Shown here: positions 8,179 to 48,353 of the stretch, piece after piece
How positions within the stretch are numbered: the stretch's first letter is position 1
How the letters are laid out: the number at the start of each line of letters is the position of its first letter
Source: a virus
Virus record (IMG/VR): IMGVR_UViG_3300028569_002586
Coordinates: 32,001-96,000 of that record
Strand: one strand, 5' to 3'
Length of the DNA: 64,000 nucleotides
Made by a program: the position numbers and the translations under genes
The notes under the pieces: generated by a model
Told to the model about the DNA's origin: nothing
Seen by the model: the letters and a program-made list of their open reading frames with translations, nothing else
Databases searched by the model: none

Positions 8179-11100
8179 TTATGCAAATATAAAATTGCCT
8201 CCAGTGTTGCCAATGCTGCTGCCCACAACAGAATATGTATTAAACTGTTGATAGCTGCTTGGGTTGCTAAAATTAGTGTGCAGAGTTTCAATGGTGGGTG
8301 TGTACATGGTGTTGATCACATTGGCTAATATACCGTTAAAGTATTTAAAGTCAGTATTGAAGATATAAAACATATTAGATGTGTCTTTTCCAAGATATGT
8401 AATGCTATATGTGCTTGTTTCTGAGTTGAATCTCAAAATGGGCTTTTCCACAGTCACAATATCAATGTTTAATCCAGTACCTGATAGTGTGAAGTCAATC
8501 ACATCACTGTATTGTATGTCAGCAACACGCATGTCAGGGTAAATTTGCACCAAATTGAAGGTGTTTAAATTCAATGCATAGATCACAGGATAAATGGCTT
8601 TGAAGTTGGATGCACTCAGTGTGGGGTGCAGTATTGTCTTGGCCAAGATGAGCTCATTGTTCTTCTCATCAAACCAAACAGTGGAGAATTTTTCTATATT
8701 TTCATTGAGGTTACCCCTGGTAACATATGTTTCATTGTTTGAAGATGTTCTGACACTATTATCTGTATAGTCAAATTCTATTTTATCAAACACCAGGTGG
8801 TTTTGTGTTTCAAGTTGCAGGGTGTCATAGTAGATATCAAAATTGATGATCTTTGTGTTGATTTCATCTAATATACTGGAAGGGTACTTCAGGAAGACAC
8901 CAGATAATGCACTGGACACTGGTTGAATGATGGAGCTGTTGGAGTTCCTAAAATAAAGATCACCATAATTAATATATTTTGTTTGGTAAATGGTTTGTTT
9001 TTCATTTAACCCTGGTAGAGTTGGCACATAAGCTGTGTCTCTGTTGGGCAGGACTATATTAAAGAACCTGCTGTACAACACAAAATTTGATGGATCATAA
9101 AACTCATCATTGCATGGGGTGAATTGATCTGTGAAAGAACTCACAACAAAGTAATATGCATAATAGTTGGTTAGTGCTGATGGTGGGGGTGTGAATGTGT
9201 AAACACCTGCAAAGGCAAAGTTGGCTCTATAATCAGGCCCACTGGGATTGACACCACCATCTGCAAGGATATCATAATAAACAGGAGATGTTATGGGGTC
9301 AAATGAGGGATCATCAGAAGATGCATCTACTAACAGATCACCATTGGGAGAGATGAAGCTGAAACCATCACGCACATTGCAATCAAAGAAGATATTAATT
9401 GTATCAGAGCAGAAGCGTTCAGGTTGCAGTCGGTAAGAAACAATGGAGAAAGGTTCTCCTGAAAGTGCAAACAAAGGTATGCCATTATCATACTGTGAAG
9501 CGGAAAGCGGTGATGCACCTGTGATGCTGCTAGCATGTGTGAAGTATCCTGATCCAGGTGGAATTTGTGTTATAGTTCTGGCAATTACACCAGAATAATT
9601 TTTAGCTGGATCAACTTCTGTATAATCAAAGTTAAATCCACTTGTAAAGTCATAAAAAGTGTGACCGTCCAGTATCAAGCAATTTTTATCTTGATTTTCT
9701 ATGCTAATTGTTGACAGTATTGCTGATGTGTTTTTGTATGGTTCAGTTAATTTGTAGAGTCCGTAGTCATTGCCATACACATCTGATTTGTATTGTACCA
9801 GTGTCTTGTTGATGCTCAACAAGGTCTCCAAACGCGTTTCAATGGGAAAGAAAATTGAAGGCACAAGAGGGTACACATCTGAATTTGCCCATCTATTTTT
9901 CAGCAGATCCTCAAAAAAATCTTGTGGATCCACATGTCTGGATATGCCTTGATTGGAGAAATCTATGGACTGTTCTCTGGCTTGATAAGCTCTGAAGGTA
10001 TGCAGCAATGGATCACTCTTCACGTCACCAAATTTATAACAATTAGAATAATCAATCTGTGTGAAGCTGTTGTCTTCTATGAAAGTTAAAGGTGAAAATT
10101 GATCTTGTTGTGTATTACCAGAAATATTTCCAAATTTATTTGGGTCAGGAAAAATATAGACTGTATTTGTCTGAAGAGAGGTTACATTGACGTTGTAAGT
10201 GAAATTAAAATTGTTAAAGTTTAAAAACCCCACCCGATCTGGCTTGAAGAACAGACCTTGTTGCTTTGCAGTTTTTAAATTTGCTTCATTAGGAACAAAA
10301 GCTACAGTGGGTGATAATTTGTTCAAATAATTTGCAAAAGGGCTTTGAGCTTGAAAAAGCATTCCTGAGGCAACATTTGTGAGACTGTTACCAGTTGATA
10401 CATAATAAAAATCTGTGCCTGTGTATTTCTTGTTAAGTTCAGAAAGAAGATTTAATTTTAAATTGTTTTCTGTGTTGTTGTTGATGAGATTGATGAAATC
10501 TCTGTCTTTTAGTAGGTCCAGCCTGGAGGGATCAATTGCAGGTAAAACTGAAAAATTATTTGTTCCAATTTCAGTTAAAAAGAATGGGTAGCTTGTTATG
10601 GCATTTACTATGGAACGGTCAAAATTAAGATACAGTTCAGCATCAATGTTGAATATGTTTAAAACAAAATCAGTTTCTCTGAGACCAGATGCATTGTATG
10701 CTGAAGCAGGCAGTGTGCCCAGATCAAAATAGTCAGAATAGTTGTCATACAATTCTTCAAGTTCAACTAAAGTATCATTGCGTATGGATGAAATGGAAAG
10801 GTTCAGTGTTCTGATCAGGGCAGTTAAATCCTGTGCTTCCAAGGTTTTAGAGATTTCATTATAAATGAGTCTTTCCAATCCAGAATTGCTTCCCTTGAGA
10901 TTGTATTCCACAACAGCTGTTTTAGCTGTATCTCTAAGAGTGGAGAAGTATATGCAAATATCTTTAATTTTCTTTGCAAAGAAGGGAACTGCAATTGCAA
11001 GATCTCTATTGTTTGTATAGTCAATATTTTTTAAAAATCTTCTCTCATCCACAGATGTAAAGTTTAAAACAATTTCATTAATAAAATCTAGGTAATATGT

Positions 11101-43255: not shown

Positions 43256-44110
43256 TTATAGGTCGTCAAGGAGCTTCTTAAGAGCATCATCTTCACTAGA
43301 AGAGGCTGCAGTAGCAGTTGACACTTCTTTTTTGGGCACAACATTGCTCTTAGCTTGTGGCTTAGCTTCTTGAGTTTCTTTAACAACCTCTTCAATATCC
43401 ACATTACAATAGTAATGTCTATTGAGAAGATCTTTGAGTTCATCATAACTCTTAACAGTTACATATGACTCCAATTCAAAGACATTCTTATAGATCTTAT
43501 CATAGGCGTCTTCATCTAGCCCCTCAACCTCTTTAGGAGTTGTAAACTTTGAAGATACATATGTTGGATAATCACCTTGTTTCTCAACTTTAATCTTCAA
43601 GTTAACGCCTTTGGGTGTCAGATCAAAGATGCGAGGTCCAAGCTCTTCAGCTTCTTCACCCTGCATGGCATCCATGACAATCTTGTAAAGTTGTTTACCA
43701 AACCTCAATACTTTGATCTTGTTATTATTCTCCTCGTTAACAGGATCATTGATAACATAGCAATTTACTAACCAACGTTCAGTACGAACAATACTTTTAG
43801 CTTTTTCCTTCTCTTGCTCAGTACCGCTCCTCAAGACACGGTATCTCTCTTCAGCAATAGGATCACGTTGATTCCAGGTGGTGGGGCTCACTGCAGTAAT
43901 AAGTTGGCCTGTAGAGAAGCTGTTCCATCCATAAGAATAGTGATGCAAAAATGTTTTAGATGGGTCTTTGATATTAGGAAGAAGACGGACTGTGTAAGTA
44001 TTGCCTACTTCAGTGCGCAAATAATCTTTAATTTTGTTAGAGCTAGCTTGGTTTTCTTTAGTGAGAGCAGACTTGATGCTCTCAAACATCGAGGAAGTTA
44101 ATGAATTCAT
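43256..44110 (-). CDS. gp32: Single-stranded DNA-binding protein (gp32)
   Basis: VRLLP, DPI.E, N.YVINDP...NN.KIKV.RFGKQLYK, IFDL..G.N.KIK, acidic tail. Confidence 0.9.
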   Translation of the reverse strand: MNSLTSSMFESIKSALTKENQASSNKIKDYLRTEVGNTYTVRLLPNIKDPSKTFLHHYSYGWNSFSTGQLITAVSPTTWNQRDPIAEERYRVLRSGTEQEKEKAKSIVRTERWLVNCYVINDPVNEENNNKIKVLRFGKQLYKIVMDAMQGEEAEELGPRIFDLTPKGVNLKIKVEKQGDYPTYVSSKFTTPKEVEGLDEDAYDKIYKNVFELESYVTVKSYDELKDLLNRHYYCNVDIEEVVKETQEAKPQAKSNVVPKKEVSTATAASSSEDDALKKLLDDL

Positions 44111-44116
44111 AAACTT

Positions 44117-44144
44117 ATAATATATGTTATTTTATATAGTTCAA
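44117..44144 (-). promoter_or_regulatory. sigma70-type promoter TTGAAC-16-TATTAT, 6 nt before gp32 ATG
   Basis: Motifs and spacing. Confidence 0.65.
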
Positions 44145-44145
44145 C

Positions 44146-44781
44146 TTAAATTTTAATTTTTTTTAAGCCTTCTTCCACCAATATTCTGCACTTGTTAGAA
44201 TTTAAGAACTTTACTTTGAACATGCTGAAGTTGTTAGAAAAGTCTTCACCGAGCATGAATCTTGTTATTTCTAAATCTGCTTTTTTATAATTACTCTCAA
44301 AATCCAAGAATCCAAATAAGGCATATATATTAATATTTCTTTCTTTGAGGTGCAGCAAGAAGGTGGCCATATTGTTTGTTGTGTGGTATATGTATTGATC
44401 AACGTTGATGCTGTTTATTTTGCAAAAATCGCGTATAAAAACAAGGGAATCCTTAGTAAAGGCTAGTTGCTCAATTTCATCAGGATCTAGCTTTTCACGT
44501 CTTTTTTGAACAATTGTATATGCTTTTGAAGCTTTTAAAGAGGTAAAGTATTTCAAATCAAGAAACTGAGAATCTGAATAAACAAGGAACGATGCTCTGA
44601 AGAACTCCTCAGGCTTAATATTTTTATTACGTGTAAAGAAGTTGGAAAGTTTCTTTAGATATACAAATTTTTCATCATCAAGGGTATCAAAATCTTTTCT
44701 AATTTTGTACGGCTTGTTGTTTGACGATCTAGATACTTTTAAATATGTGTTGTATATGTGTTTGTCAAAATCATTTACCAT
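44146..44781 (-). CDS. Probable helicase loader (gp59-like)
   Basis: 211 aa basic; IY.TYL...KF.YL.KLS pattern; directly upstream of gp32 as in T4. Confidence 0.55.
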   Translation of the reverse strand: MVNDFDKHIYNTYLKVSRSSNNKPYKIRKDFDTLDDEKFVYLKKLSNFFTRNKNIKPEEFFRASFLVYSDSQFLDLKYFTSLKASKAYTIVQKRREKLDPDEIEQLAFTKDSLVFIRDFCKINSINVDQYIYHTTNNMATFLLHLKERNINIYALFGFLDFESNYKKADLEITRFMLGEDFSNNFSMFKVKFLNSNKCRILVEEGLKKIKI

Positions 44782-44986
44782 TATAAAATTTCCACTTATT
44801 TCTGTAGAGTTGTGATCTTAGTTTTCTTTTCATGCTTGGTTTATAATGGTATCTTCTAGCTCTCGATTCTTCAAGCACAAAGTTTTTTTGAACTTCACTT
44901 GAGAACTTTTTCAGCATTTTATCAAAGTATGCTTTATCTGTGCATCTTTCTTTTTTGAGTTTCACTTCAGCTCGTATTATTATCAT
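44771..44986 (-). CDS. rpsU: Ribosomal protein bS21 (phage-encoded)
   Basis: FDKMLKKFSSEVQKNFVLEESRARRYHYKPSMKRK aligns with the E. coli S21 core [35 protein letters not shown]; 71 aa, basic. Confidence 0.85.
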   Translation of the reverse strand: MIIIRAEVKLKKERCTDKAYFDKMLKKFSSEVQKNFVLEESRARRYHYKPSMKRKLRSQLYRNKWKFYNGK

Positions 44987-45264
44987 AAAGCATTAAAATT
45001 CTTAGAATTTATAAATTTCATTATATATTTACTCTTATAAAGAGTTGGATCATACTGTAAGAAATATCTTAGTGCAAAATAGTCATTCTTAAAATCACAA
45101 TAATTCTTGAGAAGGTCACGGTACTTCTTATTCTTGAGAACAAGTAGAAAAACGTTAGCGAGGTTTAGCTTTTTTGTGCCAAGCAATGTGCAGAAAGTGC
45201 AAAATGAGAGAAACAGATGTGCGACCTCGAAGTGTGCTATCTTTTCAGAAGGATCAATATTCAT
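44983..45264 (-). CDS. Hypothetical protein
   Basis: ORF coupled to both neighbours. Confidence 0.55.
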   Translation of the reverse strand: MNIDPSEKIAHFEVAHLFLSFCTFCTLLGTKKLNLANVFLLVLKNKKYRDLLKNYCDFKNDYFALRYFLQYDPTLYKSKYIMKFINSKNFNAL

Positions 45265-45614
45265 TAATTCAGAGGGTGAAGAGATTTGGAGAGCTGTATG
45301 AAATTGCTGTTGAGTTTGCCTATAGCAATATTTTCGATGCCGCCACCTTCAAATAGCTTTGCAGCAAATTTGCTTGCGTTGAGAGTACAGTTAGCAGTTT
45401 TAATAAGAATAATTTTTTTGTCAATATCAACAACCAAGGCAACATTACATTGCAAGAACTTTATAAGATTGTCAGCTGTTTCATCATACCTGTCCTTAGT
45501 AAAGGTACTTGCAACATTATACTCTTGGTTTTGAGATCCAAGAGTTATAACTCCTTGAAAGATATCTTTTTTACTGGATTCGTTGGTCACATAATCATTT
45601 ATAGATTCAGCCAA
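45264..45614 (-). CDS. Stand-alone DHHA1-like domain protein
   Basis: FAAKLFEGGG..IAIG resembles the DHHA1 GGGH..AAG motif (His absent). Confidence 0.45.
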   Translation of the reverse strand: MAESINDYVTNESSKKDIFQGVITLGSQNQEYNVASTFTKDRYDETADNLIKFLQCNVALVVDIDKKIILIKTANCTLNASKFAAKLFEGGGIENIAIGKLNSNFIQLSKSLHPLN

Positions 45615-45627
45615 GAAGGCAACTATG

Positions 45628-46953
45628 TTAATCTATGGATAAATTAGCAAGTGTAGATAATGATGAATTTGAAGCTTCAGTTTCGTTATTGATCTCGTCC
45701 TCCGTTAAGGTTAGTGTTGAATAATCAATTCTCATATTCACTGATCCAAAATTTGCGCCAAGTCTGTTTTTCATCATGCCCATTTTAATAATGCCAAGTT
45801 CTTTATCTGCATCTTCTTGCCAAATACTCAAAATAACATCTGCTGTGAAGCCCAGTCCCATGGATTCAGATAATGTATTAAGACCTGGGTCACTTATTTC
45901 ATAGCCTTGTCTGTTGAGCTGGGTGGCAGAAATAATTGGAAAATTGAACACGTAGCTCAAGGCTCTTAACTGTTCAGTAATGTACTTGACACGCTCATAT
46001 GTGTTGCTGCCGATTGTTGTGTGTAATAGATTGACATAATCAACAACAAGCGCATCAATCTTGATGCCTTTATTGGTTATCTTCTTGATAAAAGCTTTGA
46101 GATGATTTGTAGTGATTGTTGAAGGTGGAAACTCTTTAATGATAATTTTAGATTTTGACTTTGAATCTTTGTATTCTTGAAGCTGTTGAAAAAGGGTAGG
46201 TGCTTCAGACTTTAATTGACTAAATGGAATTTTGGTGATATTTGTGCACAATCTCTTAGCATATATCATTTCAGGCATTTCAAGAGTGACAAGCAGCACT
46301 GTTTTGCCTTGCTCAGCGATATTCACAGCAAGATTGCCTAAAAAGATACTTTTACCAATATTTGTTTCACCAGCAAAAATATAAATGGCTCTTCCCTGTT
46401 CCAGGAACCCTCCACCAATTTTGTCATCTAACCATTTCCACTTGGAAGGAATATAGTTTTCCACCTTGTTAAGATCATCGATGATTAAGTTTGCATCTTC
46501 AAGCAAATCAAGGCCAATATTAGTTGTTAGCGACACATTGCATACTTTCTCAAATTTGTCTAGGATAACACTGGTATCAACAGAGTTTTTATTAATATCA
46601 TCAACTGCTTCGAGCATTGCATGATAAACACCTTTTTCTTTTAAGAAAGTTTCTGTATTGCTATAAAGTTCATCGGTATTTAAGTTTTTATCAAAGCTCT
46701 CAAAACTCCTGACCACTGTCTTGAAGCTATTCTTGAGCTCATATGTGATCAGATAACTTTTGATTTCTGTAGGCGTTGGCCTGACACCCCTCTTCTGGTA
46801 GAAGTCCCTTATGACTTCAAAAATACTTTTAATATCTTTGCTCTTGAAGAACTTTGGATTTATGTGGTCAATGACAGAAGCAAGGTATGTCTCGTCTGTG
46901 AGAGACTTGTACATGACTATATTTTCAAAAAAATCTAAATCTAGCTTCTGCAT
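45628..46953 (-). CDS. gp41: Replicative DNA helicase (gp41, DnaB family)
   Basis: AGETNIGKS, TLEM, IKEFPP, VVDYVNL, SATQLNRQG, SESMG, KNR. Confidence 0.93.
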   Translation of the reverse strand: MQKLDLDFFENIVMYKSLTDETYLASVIDHINPKFFKSKDIKSIFEVIRDFYQKRGVRPTPTEIKSYLITYELKNSFKTVVRSFESFDKNLNTDELYSNTETFLKEKGVYHAMLEAVDDINKNSVDTSVILDKFEKVCNVSLTTNIGLDLLEDANLIIDDLNKVENYIPSKWKWLDDKIGGGFLEQGRAIYIFAGETNIGKSIFLGNLAVNIAEQGKTVLLVTLEMPEMIYAKRLCTNITKIPFSQLKSEAPTLFQQLQEYKDSKSKSKIIIKEFPPSTITTNHLKAFIKKITNKGIKIDALVVDYVNLLHTTIGSNTYERVKYITEQLRALSYVFNFPIISATQLNRQGYEISDPGLNTLSESMGLGFTADVILSIWQEDADKELGIIKMGMMKNRLGANFGSVNMRIDYSTLTLTEDEINNETEASNSSLSTLANLSID

Positions 46954-46965: not shown

Positions 46966-47635
46966 TACTATTGTTTGAGTATTCTCTCATAAAAGTTTCC
47001 TGGCTATCAGTAAACATTTTATCATTAATGTTCAAGAGACCAGGAGAATTATGCACAACCCATATTGGAGCAACTCCAAGTTTAAGTTTTTTCTGATTTG
47101 CATCAATGCAGCTAGCAATATCATAGTGATGAAATTTATAATTTTCATTGAACTGCCATTTCTTGCTCCTAATGCTGGCAACCTTTACACTTAAAAATAG
47201 CCCATCAAGAATAGCAACTCTGGCAGGTGTAGAGCCAAAGCTAGTCATTGCCACTGCTTCGGGTCCAGCAGGGTGGGCAACTGCACCTCTTAAATTACCA
47301 CTACCTACACCACCGCACATTATATGCCACAAGGCAGGTTTTTGTATGATAGGGTTAATACCACCAGCCAACCCAACAATATCAAAATCTCTGTGTGCAT
47401 GAATAAGTTTTTGGCACACATTAAAATCATCAACAAAGACATCGTCATGCACAAAGACTATATACTCATATAAATTTTTAGATGTTCTAATGAAATCATT
47501 ATACCTTTTGCTTAAACCTTCAGTATTGTTCTGTTCATACACAACATCGACTTCATCTGCAAGTCGATTCACAGATTCATAGAACATAGTATTAATAATG
47601 CTGCCTCTTGTGACGCTATAGAAGGCAAACTTCAT
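46961..47635 (-). CDS. GT-A fold glycosyltransferase (GT2/StrF-like)
   Basis: LS..YN, FVHDDV (DxD-like), VGLAG, LDGLF, FHHYD...C. Confidence 0.8.
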   Translation of the reverse strand: MKFAFYSVTRGSIINTMFYESVNRLADEVDVVYEQNNTEGLSKRYNDFIRTSKNLYEYIVFVHDDVFVDDFNVCQKLIHAHRDFDIVGLAGGINPIIQKPALWHIMCGGVGSGNLRGAVAHPAGPEAVAMTSFGSTPARVAILDGLFLSVKVASIRSKKWQFNENYKFHHYDIASCIDANQKKLKLGVAPIWVVHNSPGLLNINDKMFTDSQETFMREYSNNSI

Positions 47636-48318
47636 GCAGTGTAGAATGGTGAATTGGGTTTAAAGGTTCCAACAGAGGTTAGACCTTCAACAGTTTGAAG
47701 GTACAGTATCCCCTCTTGCAGAGGATTAAATCCTGCTTGCGGCAAAGAAGAAAAGTCATTAGTTATAAAATGTGCATATAGTGTGCTGCCTGATCTTGCA
47801 AGATACACGTGCCCTGTTTTGGAAGAATATATCCAGAGTCCAAATGTACCTTTGAGCTCAGTAAGAGCTTTGCAAATGCAGTCCACTTCTTTTTTTGAAA
47901 CAGCACAATAAGAAGTGATAAGTGCTGGTATGGCAGATGAATCAACTTGGTTGATGGACTTATATTTTTTAAGCTTTCTCTTGAGTTCTGGGAAGTTGGA
48001 CAAAACACCATTGTGAGCAACATACCAGTTTAGATTGCTAAAAGGGTGAGTTGTCTTGTGAGTGTATTCTCTTATTGCTGATGTGGGTGCTTGTGTATGG
48101 CCCAAGTAATTTTGGAAGGAACTGAGTGGTTTGGTTTTTTTCCCTTGAATCTCTAATTCAAGATTACCTTTGAACCCAAACGTACCTTTTGTTTTAATAA
48201 GAGCATGTAACTTGTTATCAATAAACAGCCCTCCATATGAAAAACTGCCCCTTTTTTTATTTTTATTGTAAAGAGCAACGTATCGTTTGTAATCTGTTGA
48301 ACCAAATATACCACACAT
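47632..48318 (-). CDS. Class II (Ntn) glutamine amidotransferase, stand-alone
   Basis: MCGIFG N-terminal nucleophile, GHTQAPT, HPF, VAHNGVLSN, VDS. Confidence 0.88.
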   Translation of the reverse strand: MCGIFGSTDYKRYVALYNKNKKRGSFSYGGLFIDNKLHALIKTKGTFGFKGNLELEIQGKKTKPLSSFQNYLGHTQAPTSAIREYTHKTTHPFSNLNWYVAHNGVLSNFPELKRKLKKYKSINQVDSSAIPALITSYCAVSKKEVDCICKALTELKGTFGLWIYSSKTGHVYLARSGSTLYAHFITNDFSSLPQAGFNPLQEGILYLQTVEGLTSVGTFKPNSPFYTA

Positions 48319-48324
48319 TCATAT

Positions 48325-48353
48325 ATTATAGTCTCAAAGCATAAGTATTTCAA
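48325..48353 (-). promoter_or_regulatory. sigma70-type promoter TTGAAA-17-TATAAT, 6 nt before GATase ATG; contains the + strand late box TAAGTA (48342-48347) in its spacer
   Basis: Near-perfect consensus. Confidence 0.75.

Follow-up and report, generated by a model that had tools for sequence, protein, structure and literature searches.

Why bS21 is so frequent in aquatic phages has been a standing question since 2019, and the uncultured T4-like phage studied here raises it in a particular form. Within the stretch analysed (the window: 64,000 nucleotides, bases 32001–96000 of a 157,011-bp linear IMG/VR virus record with an estimated completeness of 74%), a gene for this ribosomal protein lies among replication genes, in a genome that has no Shine–Dalgarno (SD) signal and carries promoter boxes on its start codons. 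What would such a phage gain from a bS21? A first-pass annotation had proposed a takeover switch, in which the aromatic tail of the phage protein would sequester the anti-SD, shutting down SD-led host mRNAs and sparing those of the phage, which are leaderless or coupled. This interpretation is partly supported.

The bS21 gene and its operon

The 71-aa open reading frame (ORF) matches the Pfam model Ribosomal_S21 at 34.8 bits (cut-off 27, E 1.3e-8), or 34.9 bits in a whole-genome Pfam scan, and its PHROG match is annotated 'ribosomal protein S21' (Table 1). The protein has an N-terminal extension of about nine residues, a core with the K-P-S motif, and a tail, R-N-K-W-K-F-Y, that is both basic and aromatic. 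In an alignment of 31 family members, F21, F28, P50, and S51 are invariant and K49 is nearly so, and both the K-P-S/T motif and the two phenylalanines of the first helix are present in the family. A structural model (pLDDT 85.8) retrieves bS21 chains as its top three Foldseek rows in the PDB with TM scores of 0.50–0.59, but with E values of at least 1, and such weak values are expected at about 60 residues. Judged by its sequence, the ORF is a real bS21 homolog, and the median dN/dS of the family (0.147, for 64 pairs over a 56-codon core) reveals purifying selection, which indicates a working gene.

The gene follows the gp41 helicase gene and two small ORFs, and precedes a gene for a gp59-like helicase loader, with gp32 next; a wider T4-type replication module, including primase, UvsX, DNA polymerase, and QueC, lies further out. 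The bS21 start codon overlaps the stop codon of the upstream ORF through the sequence ATGA, and the final 11 bases of bS21 overlap the start of the downstream ORF. These overlaps indicate that bS21 is translationally coupled inside the gp41 operon, as the first-pass annotation had proposed.

Table 1. Coordinates of the bS21 gene, its neighbours, and nearby promoter elements in the window
Feature	Position	Strand	Evidence or remark
Phage bS21 gene	44771..44986	(-)	71 aa; Pfam PF01165, PHROG 21469
gp41-type DnaB-like replicative helicase	45628..46953	(-)	PF03796 1.7e-27; PHROG 19 3.9e-73
116-aa ORF, second gene of the operon, variably conserved	45264..45614	(-)	No Pfam/PHROG match
Conserved 93-aa ORF, TGA stop overlapping bS21 ATG	44983..45264	(-)	No Pfam/PHROG match
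gp59-like helicase loader, 211 aa	44146..44781	(-)	AlphaFold/Foldseek/VIA match to 1c1k; gene order
gp32 single-stranded DNA-binding protein	43256..44110	(-)	PF08804 4.9e-18; PHROG 224 1.4e-37
TATAAT box, -12..-7 of gp41 start codon	46960..46965	(-)	Genome-wide positional peak
TTGAAA-17-TATAAT promoter	48325..48353	(-)	11/12 consensus matches; -10 ends 6 nt before ATG of ORF 47632-48318
TTGAAC-16-TATTAT promoter abutting gp32 start	44117..44144	(-)	Marks end of bS21 operon

The AlphaFold model of the gp59-like protein (pLDDT 94.3) has T4 gp59 (1c1k) as its best PDB match (Foldseek probability 0.98, E 0.1). In VIA, the comparison with 1c1k gave a Z score of 7.2, which is non-decisive for a helical protein, as is any value below 8 (rmsd 13.9, 177 of 211 residues aligned, next best Z 4.8). 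The protein has no Pfam match, the gp59-like profile has no PDB sequence match, and no similarity to the gp59 of the Pelagibacter myophage HTVC008M was found. The label 'gp59-like' is a reasonable one for a moderate match, given the structural hit and the position between gp41 and gp32. Of the relatives with enough sequence downstream of gp41, almost every one has a homolog of the 93-aa ORF in the interval from gp41 to the gp59-like gene, whether or not it carries bS21; the product of this ORF is probably a replication-module protein.

No promoter box of its own precedes bS21, which is the fourth gene after the TATAAT box at gp41. That box is the predicted promoter of a leaderless gp41–bS21–gp59 transcript, and the same transcription unit may begin further upstream, at the TTGAAA-17-TATAAT element. 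From its position behind the gp41 box, and perhaps also behind the upstream promoter, bS21 is predicted to be an early or middle gene.

Genome design and relatives with and without bS21

ORFs were called naively, by taking the longest ORF with greedy removal of overlaps, which gave 180 ORFs in the window genome, and the SD cores GGAG, GAGG, and AGGA were counted at -17..-5 of the starts. Such cores precede 9% of the 180 starts, compared with 6% at a control offset, whereas the same script finds them at 46% of starts in T4, 45% in HTVC008M, and 22% in cyanophage P-RSM6. The window phage genome is without an SD signal, in agreement with the first-pass annotation. Hexamers of the form TAnnnT, TAAATA, or TAAGTA start at -12 or -11 in 61 ORFs (34%), compared with about seven at each other offset. 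They fall into two classes, one late-like (TAAATA, n = 44) and one sigma70-like (n = 30), and a TTG lies 16–18 nt upstream of 13 of the 30 sigma70-like boxes compared with 4 of the 44 late-like ones, chance being about 8%. Boxes precede 65% of genes with an upstream gap of at least 8 nt and 6% of genes that overlap their upstream neighbour. The two classes, the TTG spacing, and the bias toward gaps mark the hexamers as promoters and not as translation signals, and since transcription from a -10 hexamer at -12..-7 of the ATG is expected to begin at the start codon itself, the mRNAs are likely leaderless. The genome looks as if it were built of leaderless first genes and coupled downstream genes.

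The early promoters are of the sigma70 type (TTGnnn, 16–17 nt, TAnnnT), and TAnnTTTG, the Bacteroidota promoter type, shows no positional peak relative to start codons in the window, which bears out the earlier assignment of these promoters. A global sigma70 scan of the window gave no enrichment over shuffles (76 vs 69.6 ± 7.9), so the promoters are visible by positional analysis only. The exact T4 late box, TATAAATA, was likewise not enriched in the window (3 vs 5.6), and TAAATA or TAAGTA serves as the working late box of this phage. TAnnTTTG is commoner in the window than in shuffles (122 vs 86 ± 10), possibly as an effect of composition.

With gp41 as a probe, 80 relatives were fetched, and 67 of them had enough flanking sequence to be scored. 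Nearly all 80 share the order gp41, an optional ORF, the homolog of the 93-aa ORF, bS21 where present, the gp59-like gene, and gp32. At this site, bS21 is present in 30 of the 67 relatives and absent from 37. On the gp41 tree, its distribution requires at least three changes (gains or losses): one positive clade of 27 contains a single clean loss, a separate positive clade has four members, and bS21-negative clades lie between the two. In the relative with the clean loss (L062:8258-9205), about 24 nt are left between the homolog of the 93-aa ORF and the gp59-like gene.

Among the negative relatives is a complete genome, G003 (the record of L116; L137-L146), of 184,542 bp with direct terminal repeats and a CheckV completeness of 100%. 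No bS21 was found in it by Pfam, by the family profile, or by an unfiltered six-frame hmmsearch, in which the bS21 of the window genome, as a control, scored 1.8e-36. Of the 273 ORFs of G003, 105 have a box at -12 or -11, and SD cores precede 5%. When starts were pooled, the frequency of a box at -12 ± 1 was 0.41 in the window genome, 0.39 in bS21-positive relatives, 0.41 in bS21-negative relatives, and 0.35 in a second lineage carrying the gene (group B), and the corresponding frequencies of SD cores were 0.09, 0.05, 0.05, and 0.06. Positive and negative sisters are thus alike in both respects. The initiation factors IF3 and IF1, as possible stand-ins for bS21, were not found in G000, G003, or G004.

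Genes for bS21 also occur at other sites in related phages. Group B, a second T4-like lineage of about 28 loci, has the tailed bS21 among its structural genes, close to those for the portal and the tail-sheath stabiliser (L005, L006, L008, L011, L014, L023, L035, and L042 are among these loci, with bS21 at about 10001–10204 of 20-kb loci). Of 20 distinct sequences, at least 13 have a TAAATA box 4–5 nt ahead of the bS21 start codon, and this late-type box marks the group B gene as a late gene, whose mRNA would probably itself be late and leaderless. The genome G004 (the record of L131; 211 kb, 99% complete) has no bS21 at the gp41 site and instead has an unrelated, more canonical bS21 of 65 aa (L136:1453-1650, minus strand) beside tail-fibre-like and QueD-like genes, which looks like an independent acquisition. 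Repeated uptake of this kind suggests a recurring benefit. As bS21-negative sisters keep the SD-free design, the leaderless design belongs to the wider clade and does not require bS21; the gene is an optional, mobile addition to a leaderless T4-like clade. The first-pass annotation had reasoned that leaderless relatives lacking bS21, together with SD-using relatives carrying it, would speak against a takeover switch. That pattern is largely what is seen: 37 relatives of the same design, as well as one complete genome (G003) in full, are negative, and HTVC008M, which uses SD sites at 45% of its starts, carries a bS21.

The different surroundings of the gene also bear on whether the protein acts on the ribosome at all. 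A basic RNA- or DNA-binding protein derived from bS21 could serve the replication module off the ribosome, perhaps by chaperoning nucleic acids or by repressing translation in the manner of RegA, and the fixed place between helicase and helicase loader, coupled to both neighbours, would suit such a role, as would the strong divergence from cellular bS21; an extraribosomal partner of bS21, the OLE RNP, is reported (PMC12054373). However, the occurrence of the same family in the structural module of group B means that the replication context is not essential, and the core of bS21 that contacts 16S rRNA is conserved. We consider an off-ribosome role very unlikely.

The phage has no cultured relative, since neither the region (blastn) nor bS21 (tblastn) has a match among 50,697 phage records, and its gp41 and DNA polymerase are only about 30% identical to those of cyanophages and others. 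A search of its genome for host clues found no WhiB. Outside the window, at genome bases 1648-2063 (L050:1648-2063, minus strand), Rfam RF00023 matches a tmRNA of the one-piece form at 94.6 bits, which ARAGORN did not call and whose tag-coding region holds an insert of some 77 nt; a one-piece tmRNA is a weak argument against hosts with two-piece tmRNA. Deinococcus–Thermus and Actinobacteria are known for many leaderless mRNAs. In ten bacterial control genomes, the Pfam bS21 model matched six and found nothing in Thermus, Deinococcus, Thermotoga, or Corynebacterium.

The bS21 family and its tail compared with known systems

Close relatives of the window protein are few, with four clusters at 90% identity in one search and eight representatives among 1.84 billion proteins in another. 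A degenerate-pattern scan of IMG/VR found 47 loci that carry the family, and beyond these, another 30 gp41-syntenic relatives carry it at the position seen in the window. Of the Atlas clusters, the nearest three are viral throughout (100%), with scores of 0.88–0.89, under the lead threshold of 0.9. In a pattern-seeded scan that covered 185,579 species genomes, one weak cellular relative was confirmed, with 34% identity, and P0011 and P0012, the most distant of the relatives, come from phage-like contigs full of small genes without a family match. The clade of the window bS21 appears to be confined to virus-like contigs.

The aromatic-rich C-terminus noted in the first-pass annotation is a property of the whole family: the motif K-W-K-[FY]-[YH] is conserved in 45 of 47 distinct members, with W65 nearly invariant. 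In all 47, the C-terminal part is strongly basic (pI 10.0–12.0). Relative to cellular bS21, about nine residues are added ahead of the first helix, and the C-terminal part is short, with 16–20 residues after K-P-S; K-[FY]-[YH] is often followed by one to three more. The E. coli tail runs for 29 residues after K-P-S, so the motif cannot sit at the same distance in the two proteins. In E. coli and Betaproteobacteria, a terminal RLY or KLY motif of bS21 contacts h37 and A1167 of 16S rRNA, and KLY-like motifs have been noted in some phage S21 proteins (Watson 2020, PMC7550191). The family resembles these proteins in having a basic-hydrophobic-Tyr motif at or near the C-terminus and differs from them in a tail that is about ten residues shorter, with up to three residues after the motif; with the motif K-[FY]-[YH] on a tail of 16–20 residues, the resemblance is loose, and assignment to the Gamma/Betaproteobacterial RLY/KLY-tailed type was rejected.

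In Bacteroidota, bS21 sequesters the anti-SD together with bS18 and bS6, and a bS21 tyrosine helps (Jha 2021, PMC7797042). The signature of this type is a tyrosine 12 residues past the K-P-S serine (S42+12; Tyr54 in Flavobacterium johnsoniae) with a weakly basic C-terminal part (PMC7797042). The window family shares with it a variant bS21, a system that ignores SD sites, and an aromatic side chain that would lie near the 3' tail of 16S rRNA, but it has neither the signature tyrosine nor the weakly basic C-terminal part, and the promoters of the window phage are of another type. The family profile aligns ungapped with F. johnsoniae bS21 at an offset of nine (profile positions 19–60 correspond to residues 10–51 of 7jil_z), which places N63 at the Tyr54 position, a register that is extrapolated because both residues lie just past the aligned stretch. 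The nearest aromatics are Y61, which is not conserved, and W65. The profile scores 28.6 bits against F. johnsoniae bS21 and 34–37 bits against the proteins of Lactococcus, Pseudomonas, and E. coli. With an asparagine in place of the tyrosine, in this extrapolated register, and a strongly basic tail, the Bacteroidota anti-SD-sequestering type was rejected as well, and the likeness to Bacteroidota anti-SD masking suggested in the first-pass annotation was not upheld. The tail appears to fit neither known type.

Phage-encoded bS21 is a known class. Mizuno 2019 (PMC6375957) counted about 1,300 viral contigs with bS21, and bS21 is by far the commonest ribosomal protein of aquatic phages, spread over many host phyla and genomic contexts (PMC6375957; PMC9723584). 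The protein of HTVC008M is 54% identical to that of its host and enters E. coli 70S ribosomes, which then translate a GFP template in vitro at about 5%; bS21 is a loosely bound, exchangeable protein (PMC6375957). HTVC008M resembles the window phage in being T4-like, lytic, and aquatic and in having a small bS21 gene that is under purifying selection, for which replacement of host bS21 in favour of phage transcripts has been proposed (PMC6375957). Unlike the window phage, it has a bS21 without the K-W-K-Y-Y tail, located elsewhere, beside cobS and hsp20, and it combines its frequent SD sites with no box peak at -13..-11.

The freshwater myophages of Chen 2022 (PMC9723584), to which Bacteroidetes hosts were assigned, are likewise uncultured and have bS21 at a fixed genomic place, and their C-terminal aromatic residue has been discussed with regard to the anti-SD. 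Group B is like them in that its bS21 lies among structural genes, behind a late box, whereas the window phage has it in an early or middle replication operon; in that study, only 30 of 900 phages had a DNA helicase no more than ten genes away from bS21 (PMC9723584). Their proteins are Flavobacteriia-like, with an aromatic residue at the Tyr54 position, where the window family has an asparagine, and no K-W-K-Y-Y sequence was found in the supplements (PMC9723584).

The takeover system had been put forward in the first-pass annotation as undescribed. The general idea, that a phage bS21 replaces the host protein and favours phage mRNA, was put forward as a hypothesis in Mizuno 2019 (PMC6375957), was developed further in Chen 2022 (PMC9723584), and is also mentioned in Jha 2021 (PMC7797042); Chen 2022 credits it to Al-Shayeb 2020 (PMC9723584). 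Only the link between phage bS21 and leaderless phage mRNAs was not found in the literature searched.

Several features would suit the proposed anti-SD switch: SD sites are missing from the phage genome and promoter boxes lie on its start codons, its bS21 tail is aromatic with a nearly invariant tryptophan, the Bacteroidota tyrosine provides a precedent (PMC7797042), the GFP output of ribosomes with HTVC008M bS21 was only about 5% in vitro (PMC6375957), and predicted early or middle expression would fit host shut-off. Yet same-design sisters, including the complete G003, do without bS21, HTVC008M has one and uses SD sites, the residue at the Tyr54 position is non-aromatic in the extrapolated register, the C-terminal pI of 10–12 departs from the weakly basic Bacteroidota part (PMC7797042), sequestration in Bacteroidota also needs features of host bS18 and bS6, and the late group B protein is a poor fit to shut-off. 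A preprint reports that E. coli ribosomes without uS2 and bS21 favour the leaderless lambda cI mRNA (PMC10491246), a loss of bS21 accompanied by better leaderless translation, which is contrary to a simple reading in which more bS21 helps leaderless mRNA. A switch that acts through the anti-SD seems to us rather improbable.

Candidate roles and meaning

The reading that we favour, with modest confidence, is a virus-adapted bS21 that would join host 30S subunits as an accessory factor. The gene would encode a functional, virus-adapted paralogue of bS21, made early or in mid-infection by translational coupling in the sigma70-type gp41–gp59 operon; the protein would most likely bind the exchangeable bS21 site on the 30S platform, replacing or supplementing host bS21, and act there as an accessory fitness factor that tunes the initiation of translation. 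Homology, conservation, selection, operon position, genome architecture, and patchy distribution are observed here, whereas binding to the ribosome, expression timing, and any influence on mRNA choice are inferred. In favour of this reading are the Pfam match, the K-P-S core, the conservation, the low dN/dS, and the virus-only relatives, together with the sigma70-type boxes that abut start codons at the operon's promoters, the entry of HTVC008M bS21 into E. coli 70S ribosomes (PMC6375957), and the repeated uptake, in group B and G004, among leaderless phages. Against it, the family diverges from all cellular bS21 in its N-terminal extension and its short, odd tail, and 30S binding is assumed; the gene is dispensable, with at least three gains or losses on the gp41 tree and none present in the complete G003; and box and SD frequencies are equal in sisters with and without it.

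A phage might also simply replenish a protein that binds loosely, assembles late, and becomes scarce in slow-growing or shut-off hosts, which would keep ribosomes complete with no mRNA selectivity. The frequency of bS21 among aquatic phage ribosomal proteins (PMC6375957; PMC9723584), its accessory nature with repeated gain and loss in these phages, and its different timing between lineages would all agree with plain supply. A supply gene would, however, be expected to stay near host bS21, as that of HTVC008M does (PMC6375957), whereas close cellular relatives of this family are lacking, and its tail and N-terminal extension are conserved features of its own; we judge plain supply unlikely.

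More speculatively, the K-W-K-Y-Y-tailed bS21 could be a virus-evolved ribosome modifier that lowers initiation on leadered or SD-led host mRNAs and spares leaderless and coupled phage mRNAs, an optional shut-off module that moves among the leaderless T4-like clade; this seems quite doubtful to us. In a proposed variant, the host lineage would naturally be without bS21, like the four control genomes in which the Pfam model found none, and the phage would add a protein that its ribosome never had.

Whichever role applies, the leaderless clade provides a natural comparison, in which close relatives share the same SD-free design and differ in the presence of bS21, and G003 is a ready negative control for any hypothesis about the protein. 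W65 and the aromatic tail define bS21 variants for reporter and cryo-EM tests, and should the protein indeed shift the preference of ribosomes, it could serve as a compact means of biasing translation. The window gene encodes a phage bS21 of a known class with a distinctive tail, and the same protein is predicted to stand under early or late control in different lineages of leaderless phages. The comparison of sister phages speaks against bS21 as the factor that enables leaderless translation in this clade.
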